From Escherichia phage vB_EcoM_Shinka: a stretch of DNA of 64,000 nucleotides. The stretch lies in the sequence record MZ502379.1; one strand, given 5' to 3'. Below, one piece after another: positions 41,539 to 42,293 of the stretch. Positions within the stretch are counted from its first letter, which is position 1, and each line of letters begins with the position of its first letter. A program made the translations under genes and the position numbers. Under the pieces are notes generated by a model. It made no database searches. It saw nothing but the letters and a program-made list of their open reading frames with translations, and was not told the origin of the DNA.

Positions 41539-42087
41539 ACCCAAGAAAACATCTACTGATCGTTGATACCACTGCAAATCCAAATAGCCATTACGCACAT
41601 TAAACTGATAGAACATATGACAAGGCGGTAATGCCATCTGCTTGAGTTCAGCTGGATTCCATGCTGAAACAATTTGACGCCTATCATTTGGCAATTTTTT
41701 AATACGATCAATAACTTCTATAATTTGGTCTACACCGCCAAAATCACGCCACTGTTTTCCATAAATTGGACCAAGTTCACCGCTATGGTATCCTAAATCT
41801 TTTGCTTGATTTTCGTAATTTTCATCCCAGACTGTTTTGCCTTGAATTAATGAATTATGTTGAATTAATCGCAAATCATTGACATTTGTGCTTCCCGATA
41901 AAAACCAAAGCAGCTCAGCAATGCAAGCTTTCCAGGCGAGCTTCTTAGTTGTTACTGCAGGAAAACCTTTAGTTAAATCCCAGCGTAATTTAGTACCGAA
42001 CAAAGCAATTGTTCCTGTGCCTGTTCGGTCATCGGTTTCGTAGCCATTTTCCAGGATATCTTTAATTAAAAATTGGTATTGTTTCAT
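41539..42087 (-). CDS. td: Thymidylate synthase, exon 1
   Basis: 183 aa from MKQYQ to DVFLG; active-site PPCH present; track ORF begins at an upstream TTG. Confidence 0.85.
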
Positions 42088-42293
42088 TAGTTCATCCAAG
42101 AATATGTAGAAGGATATTTGGCAAAGTTAGGCTTATATCCTAATTTAACCATTTGTTTTGCTTTGCGAGTAAATCCTAAAGAACGCTCACCTTTAAGATA
42201 TTGTTTTGGTGTCATAGGCCCTTGATGCATCTGCCGACAAATAAAAAGGGCCATAGCATTAGGAACATCCTTAACTTTTAATTTATTGCTCAT
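42087..42293 (-). CDS. Hypothetical 68-aa basic protein inserted between frd and td
   Basis: ATG overlaps frd stop (ATGA) and its stop overlaps td ATG (TAATG). Confidence 0.45.

Follow-up and report, generated by a model that had tools for sequence, protein, structure and literature searches.

A small phrog_9550 gene in a variable slot between frd and td of a T4-like Escherichia phage

We analysed 64,000 nucleotides (nt) of Escherichia phage vB_EcoM_Shinka (MZ502379.1; this whole stretch is referred to below as the window), a T4-like (Tequatrovirus) genome segment, with a focus on a 68-codon open reading frame (ORF), here called ORF68, that lies between frd, the gene for dihydrofolate reductase (DHFR), and td, the gene for thymidylate synthase (TS). 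Judged by its conservation, ORF68 is a genuine gene and not a chance ORF, and it is already catalogued as phrog_9550, with well over 100 GenBank records listing it as a 'hypothetical protein'. The explanation that we favour, and consider probable, is that ORF68 is an accessory gene in a polymorphic frd-td slot, translationally coupled to both neighbours, exchanged laterally and encoding an early, dispensable binding protein. An earlier reading of the sequence alone had picked out the ORF; the present analysis adds a slot with three states, a mosaic patch that crosses genera and, in the form of weak Shine-Dalgarno (SD) signals, evidence for a coupling chain of three cistrons. The case is a tidy but fairly ordinary one of modest overall importance, and it corrects a T4-centred picture in that the direct frd/td overlap of T4 proves to be the exception among T-even phages.

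The gene order on the minus strand of the window is gene 32, frd.3-frd.1, frd, ORF68, td (with an intron), nrdA.2, nrdA.1 and nrdA, and the closest public matches to the window are Yersinia phage fPS-65 and Escherichia phage UPWr_E4 (99.7%). The sequence-only reading had placed between frd and td an ORF overlapping both, and we recovered exactly the peptide that it quoted as well as both overlaps: the frd stop codon TGA shares an ATGA with the ORF68 start codon (reading ...TATAAATGAGCAAT), and the ORF68 stop codon TAA shares a TAATG with the start of td (reading ...GAACTAATGAAACAATACC), ORF68 filling the gap from frd stop to td start exactly. The td start used here is the ATG that opens MKQYQF..., the program-listed in-frame TTG further upstream being a wrong start. 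TAATG is also found at the ORF68/td junction of Marfa, 4S and IME281, and a GTGA overlap in CIP9. The claim that frd and td of T4 overlap directly was borne out by the T4 record, which shows ATGA (reading ...GTATATAAATGAAACAATACC); Purohit and Mathews reportedly described this gene overlap in the Journal of Biological Chemistry in 1984. The frd 3′ end in the window is 100% T4-type as far as the ORF68 start codon, and the sequence upstream of that codon is identical to the sequence that precedes td in T4. Thus ORF68 shares the ATGA motif and its upstream sequence with the T4 frd/td pair, and td starts at a stop-start overlap in both, but here there is one cistron more and the putative coupling chain has three members instead of two.

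ORF68 matched the entire phrog_9550 hidden Markov model (PHROGs v4) with E 1.3e-45, its residues 1-68 aligning to positions 1-68 of the 68-position profile; its distant homologs fell into the same family. It is a full member of this family of unknown function, which includes fPS-65 g232c, Marfa gp177 (YP_009850431), CIP9 gp059 and phAPEC8 gp235 (YP_007348396) and in which no member has an assigned function. By tblastn, homologs with 43-100% identity were found in 237 phage records, comprising approximately 134 from T-even phages or Dhakavirus (92-100%), 31 from T4-like phages of Klebsiella, Enterobacter or Serratia (60-81%) and 72 from phAPEC8-like Phapecoctaviruses (about 43%); more than 100 phage records already annotate an identical or near-identical protein at this junction. 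The family is conserved end to end, from an N-terminal M(S/KG)NK(L/M)KV..VP to a C-terminal LGYKP.Y..Y.S.YSW(M/F)D. Nei-Gojobori ratios of non-synonymous to synonymous substitution (dN/dS) were 0.06-0.19 against IME281, Marfa, CIP9 and 4S and 0.06-0.28 over all computable pairs, which indicates purifying selection on the protein. The suggestion that a small gene sits in a coupled-type junction is therefore upheld by the profile match, the number of records and dN/dS alike.

The size of ORF68 is also typical of its relatives. An exhaustive HMMER search of 1.8 billion representative proteins returned just 15, all small, a widened profile search added a few of 85-108 aa without domain fusions, and a scan of IMG/VR gave just 10 extra loci, largely from known phages. 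Taken together, three homolog searches and the exhaustive HMMER search found small stand-alone relatives alone and no domain fusions, and in a size check that covered searches of 1.8 and 5.8 billion proteins all relatives were stand-alone proteins of 55-108 aa, except for obvious frameshifted or mis-called sequences and one repeat artefact. With a natural family size of approximately 60-100 aa, ORF68 is not a fragment of a larger protein.

The state of the junction in other phages was surveyed by searching a synthetic ORF-less junction against the phage collection, which gave 505 records with both flanks, and by scoring an evenly spaced sample of 54 of these. Among the sampled T-even records the direct T4-type junction was present in seven (~13%), the ORF68 state, with an extra 206 nt, in 12 (~22%) and a third state, with approximately 416 nt more and an ORF known as RB32ORF229c, in 35 (~65%). 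Overall, the ORF68 junction was found in 135 records and RB32ORF229c in 363 at 90% identity or more. ORF68 is hence carried by approximately 22-27% of T-even phages, as a 'hypothetical protein', and is neither a feature of most of them nor one with a known annotation. The empty T4 junction is, by these counts, a minority state and no obvious ancestor. Since ORF68 and td both start with ATGA, what separates the ORF68 state from the T4 state is precisely the stretch bounded by two ATGA (AATGA) motifs, such that precise deletion and recombinational insertion are both possible, and the T4 state could equally have arisen by a precise deletion between the two motifs.

At least five lineages, namely Tequatrovirus, Dhakavirus, Kanagawavirus, Marfavirus and Serratia phage 4S, have an ORF68 homolog immediately before td. 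Two states occur within Dhakavirus, ORF68 in IME281 and JS10 and an empty junction in IME08. RB32ORF229c is a 115-aa hypothetical protein of family phrog_1928 that is present in T2, T6, RB14, RB33 and many other phages. Kanagawavirus CIP9 has two phrog_1928 members followed by an ORF68 homolog overlapping td, and Marfavirus Marfa and Serratia phage 4S have one phrog_1928 member each in the same arrangement. RB32ORF229c thus resembles ORF68 in its slot, its small size, its unknown function and its patchy distribution, but it is larger, unrelated in sequence and, in T6 and RB14, uncoupled and flanked by repeats. The T6 and RB14 cassettes (1700-2115 of locus L005 and 1697-2118 of locus L006, respectively) have intergenic spacers, an SD of their own and a TATAAT-like element before td, which would leave td uncoupled from frd in T2-, T6- and RB14-type phages, and they are bounded by an 8-9 bp AAATGAAA(Y) direct repeat, in line with the remark in the RB14 record that the cassette is 'flanked by 9 bp repeat'. 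The RB14/RB32 annotations had earlier drawn attention to the variability of this junction. Pfam searches with the slot neighbours gave nothing useful for function, and our literature search found no mention of the ORF68 peptide, its PHROG identifier or RB32ORF229c. From the genomes compared, we conclude that the frd-td junction is a small variable slot that may be empty or hold members of either or both of two unrelated ORF families.

Evidence of lateral exchange came from a comparison of the window with Dhakavirus IME281, in which ORF68 was 97.5% identical at the nucleotide level (199/204), frd 80.6% and td exon 1 78.8%. In 100-nt sliding windows, identity first reached 93% in the window starting approximately 30 nt before the ORF68 start and stayed at 90% or above to approximately 100 nt into td. 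Over its first ~50 nt, td matches both IME08 and IME281 at 100% and T4 at 84%, and deeper td is T4-type again. The patch runs from the ORF68 start to some 50-100 nt within td. This mosaic patch is evidently the product of a recent recombinational exchange of the ORF68 cassette between genera. Of the proposal that a gene had been inserted relative to T4, lateral acquisition therefore stands, given a patch at 97.5% between flanks at ~80%, but T4 as the reference state does not, because most T-even phages, T2 and T6 included, carry RB32ORF229c where T4 is empty.

The td 5′ end was also considered as a pointer to the direction of transfer. Dhakavirus to Tequatrovirus was dropped, as the same tract is present in Tequatroviruses with the other cassette: BCPEco_001 and SHFML-11 combine RB32ORF229c with the 'Dhaka-type' td 5′ tract (CAATTTTTAATTAAAGATATCCTGG) that stands beside ORF68 in the window. 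The opening ~50 nt of td seem prone to recombination independently of the cassette beside them. No 'scar' genome, with a T4-type frd end joined directly to a Dhaka-type td start, was found among the best 40 matches. Within Tequatrovirus, HP3, with a T6-type cassette, is closer to the window in its flanks (96.5%) than the ORF68 carrier UGKSEcP1 (95.1%); junction state does not track flank similarity cleanly, which suggests repeated exchange.

The case for translational coupling rests on the overlaps together with the signals around them. SD pairing amounted to -3.5 kcal/mol for ORF68, at what is the T4 td translation-initiation region, and to -3.1 for td, compared with -6.5 for frd and -12.7 for the phAPEC8 homolog, which has a canonical AAGGAGGT SD. 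Between the frd stop and the td start, both ORF68 junctions included, we found no site resembling a promoter or terminator. The only motif matches nearby lie inside frd and at its start, and the frequency of promoter-like matches in the region is no higher than in shuffled sequence; upstream, the frd.x region contains the terminator of gene 32 along with several promoter-like sites. The promoter-carrying mobile cassettes (PeSL) of T4-type hyperplastic regions, which Arbiol and colleagues are said to have described in 2010, are bounded by early-promoter and stem-loop elements, both of which are missing from the ORF68 junctions. ORF68 has instead what marks a coupled cistron, overlapping stop and start codons with a weak independent SD at both ends, and from this we infer coupling from frd to ORF68 to td. 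A UAAUGA overlap of nrdA with mobE in T4 has likewise been read as suggestive of coupling (Edgell et al., 2010; PMC2988022).

The ORF68 product had been described from its sequence as basic and free of recognisable motifs, and both descriptions hold: the 7.9 kDa protein has an isoelectric point (pI) of 10.3, with 13 lysine and arginine residues against two aspartate and glutamate residues, and has no Pfam match, the 26 family members that were searched giving scattered sub-threshold matches to unrelated families in one or two cases. ORF68 also had no match in NCBIfam, none in the PDB by sequence or by profile, no fold match and neither a helix-turn-helix domain match nor a significant fold match to a helix-turn-helix protein. 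An AlphaFold2 model from a 26-sequence alignment (pLDDT 77.7, pTM 0.53) predicted three short helices (residues 13-24, 29-38 and 43-50) against which an aromatic-rich C-terminal tail packs. Two other possibilities were discarded. An RNA element within the ORF was rejected because, apart from sub-threshold noise within ORF68, Rfam gave just the td intron, at gathering score, and the fold z-score was -0.26; a lipoprotein signal peptide, suggested by a lysine-rich N-terminus followed by LFIC, was rejected in view of a hydrophobic stretch of insufficient length and of the replacement of the cysteine by alanine in phAPEC8-type members.

Beyond the enteric T4-like cluster, gene context is uninformative but consistent from case to case. 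The phAPEC8 homolog lies in an array of small early ORFs approximately 35 kb from the TS gene and on the other strand, divergent members (loci L010, L013, L029, L031 and L034) lie in arrays of small uncharacterised early-type ORFs, and another (locus L032) lies in a small-ORF array that is also near PIF1, DnaB and RNA-ligase genes. One metagenomic contig, ERR3943981_118036, has a Tad2-like (anti-Thoeris) gene (286-669 of locus L013) approximately 4.3 kb upstream of a distant phrog_9550 member and on the opposite strand; as a single case at too great a distance, its proximity was given no weight.

We suggest the following scheme for ORF68. Having no promoter, terminator or strong ribosome-binding site of its own, it would ride on the frd-td early/middle mRNA, ribosomes ending at the frd TGA restarting at the overlapping ORF68 ATG and those ending at the ORF68 TAA restarting at the td ATG, so that the cassette would keep a chain from frd through ORF68 to td where T4 would pass directly from frd to td. 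The genome comparisons show that T-even lineages exchange the cassette through recombination within or beside the conserved genes that flank it, and the ATGA motifs at its two ends permit precise gain or loss with coupling intact. This illustrates how a phage can place an accessory gene within a coupled operon and leave the expression of the neighbouring nucleotide-metabolism genes undisturbed. The weakest step concerns the product, which would be a strongly basic three-helix protein that most likely binds nucleic acid or a host or phage protein. The lack of Pfam, NCBIfam and PDB matches, the length of 68 aa and the pI together favour a non-enzymatic reading, and absence from most T-even phages, together with the small-ORF arrays that surround the phAPEC8 and divergent members, favours an accessory role that is not bound to TS or DHFR. 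We picture a dispensable early factor of conditional benefit, for example in host takeover or counter-defence, and not one obligatory for DHFR/TS function; the recent patch across genera makes ORF68 a sensible choice when phage accessory genes are screened for function. A bolder extension, which we regard as rather unlikely, is that the frd/td ATGA junction may be a docking site for promoterless plug-in cassettes, entering by microhomology or flanking homology, and that ORF68 may be a new small basic effector, for instance in counter-defence or host takeover, whose recent spread between genera (97.5% identity of the Tequatrovirus and Dhakavirus copies) reflects selection by host immunity.

As the main alternative, ORF68 might be a dedicated partner or regulator of the folate/thymidylate module, such as a small subunit of TS or DHFR, an adaptor in a deoxynucleotide-synthesising complex or a basic RNA-binding tuner of td translation, coupled to td for production of the two in fixed proportion. 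Coupling is the classical arrangement for proteins that act together, and the overlap with td recurs in all five lineages named above; in alignments with the window, ORF68 and td of Marfa, CIP9 and 4S form one unbroken block, with frd aligning in short weak segments or not at all. A 61%-identical homolog on the T4-like metagenomic contig SRR31860683_389218 (1065-1852 of locus L012) is placed directly upstream of DHFR with an ATGA overlap, although this 2.6-kb contig has no TS gene after DHFR. However, approximately three quarters of T-even records, including T4, T2 and T6, have the same frd and td without ORF68, and in phAPEC8-like phages the homolog stands far from the TS gene, on the other strand and with a strong SD of its own. 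Other divergent members have no TS or DHFR neighbour, and adjacency to td may be mere inherited synteny within T4-like phages. We therefore think a dedicated role in the module unlikely.

Very unlikely is the view of ORF68 as a translated spacer, akin to an upstream ORF, that sets the rate of re-initiation at td with a peptide that has no function itself. The weak SD at both junctions and the exact span from frd stop to td start would suit such a role, but phAPEC8-like phages, in which the gene lies away from td and is preceded by an SD of its own, retain the amino acid sequence at 43% identity, synonymous change is far greater than non-synonymous change, and T4 couples frd and td without any spacer.

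Placement in such a junction also recalls the free-standing homing endonuclease genes of T4, among them mobE, which lies between nrdA and nrdB (Edgell et al., 2010). Like seg and mob genes, ORF68 is optional between conserved nucleotide-metabolism genes, has its promoters upstream, overlaps the upstream stop codon with its start and is patchy among close relatives; this placement is seen in many other accessory ORFs as well and is not diagnostic. The sequence-only reading had judged ORF68 too short for an intact homing endonuclease, and with a family of 55-108 aa and an hhalign probability of 0.3% against I-TevI we agree. The idea of a decayed endonuclease or selfish element that invaded the junction and lost its function, for which the seg/mob-like site and the short direct repeats (AATGA at ORF68, AAATGAAA around the T6-type cassette) could be cited, is largely refuted by relatives that, in searches of 1.8 and 5.8 billion proteins, align end to end with none longer and no nuclease domain, by the absence of GIY-YIG, HNH or any other Pfam match, by the lack of a paralog or endonuclease-like match in the window and by purifying selection on the protein. 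Seg and mob proteins have about 200-300 aa against the 68 aa of ORF68, which shows no sign of self-promoted mobility. As an accessory gene, ORF68 appears to spread passively by flanking homology.

Table 1. Positions in the window of ORF68, its junctions and adjoining features
Feature	Position	Strand	Basis or remark
ORF68 coding sequence, 68 codons plus TAA, phrog_9550	42087..42293	-	ORF with family match, alignments and dN/dS
ATGA, frd stop TGA overlapping ORF68 start ATG	42290..42293	-	Overlap; ORF68 ATG 42293-42291, frd TGA 42292-42290
TAATG, ORF68 stop TAA overlapping td start ATG	42085..42089	-	Overlap; ORF68 TAA 42089-42087, td ATG 42087-42085
Mosaic patch, ORF68 plus first ~50-60 nt of td, near-identical to Dhakavirus (IME281, IME08)	42030..42293	-	Sliding identity; right edge approximate
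frd, dihydrofolate reductase, upstream of ORF68	42290..42871	-	ORF listing, public matches
td exon 1, thymidylate synthase residues 1-183, downstream of ORF68	41539..42087	-	tblastn mapping and annotations
td group I intron, ~320 nt	41219..41538	-	Rfam match 41267-41548
td exon 2	40907..41218	-	

Annotation of the ORF is inconsistent, and we flag errors in several public genomes. It is unannotated in JS10 (1501-1707 of locus L017), IME281 (1796-2002 of locus L008) and IME339 annotate just a 42-aa C-terminal piece from an internal ATG, and one PYPS2T record labels the homolog a 'flagellar biosynthesis protein'.

The window has an ORF-less td intron in an otherwise T4-like td gene: no I-TevI frame is present and all internal ORFs are 33 aa or shorter, whereas T4 and T6 carry I-TevI in the same intron. 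A link between ORF68 and the intron or I-TevI was considered and rejected, since ORF68 occurs with an intron-less td in IME281, Marfa and CIP9 and with an ORF-less intron in the window, and T4 and T6, which carry I-TevI, have no ORF68. Compared with the RB14 protein, the Td of the window has 92% amino acid identity in exon 1 and just 70% in exon 2, which suggests mosaicism between T-even lineages within td, around the site of the intron.
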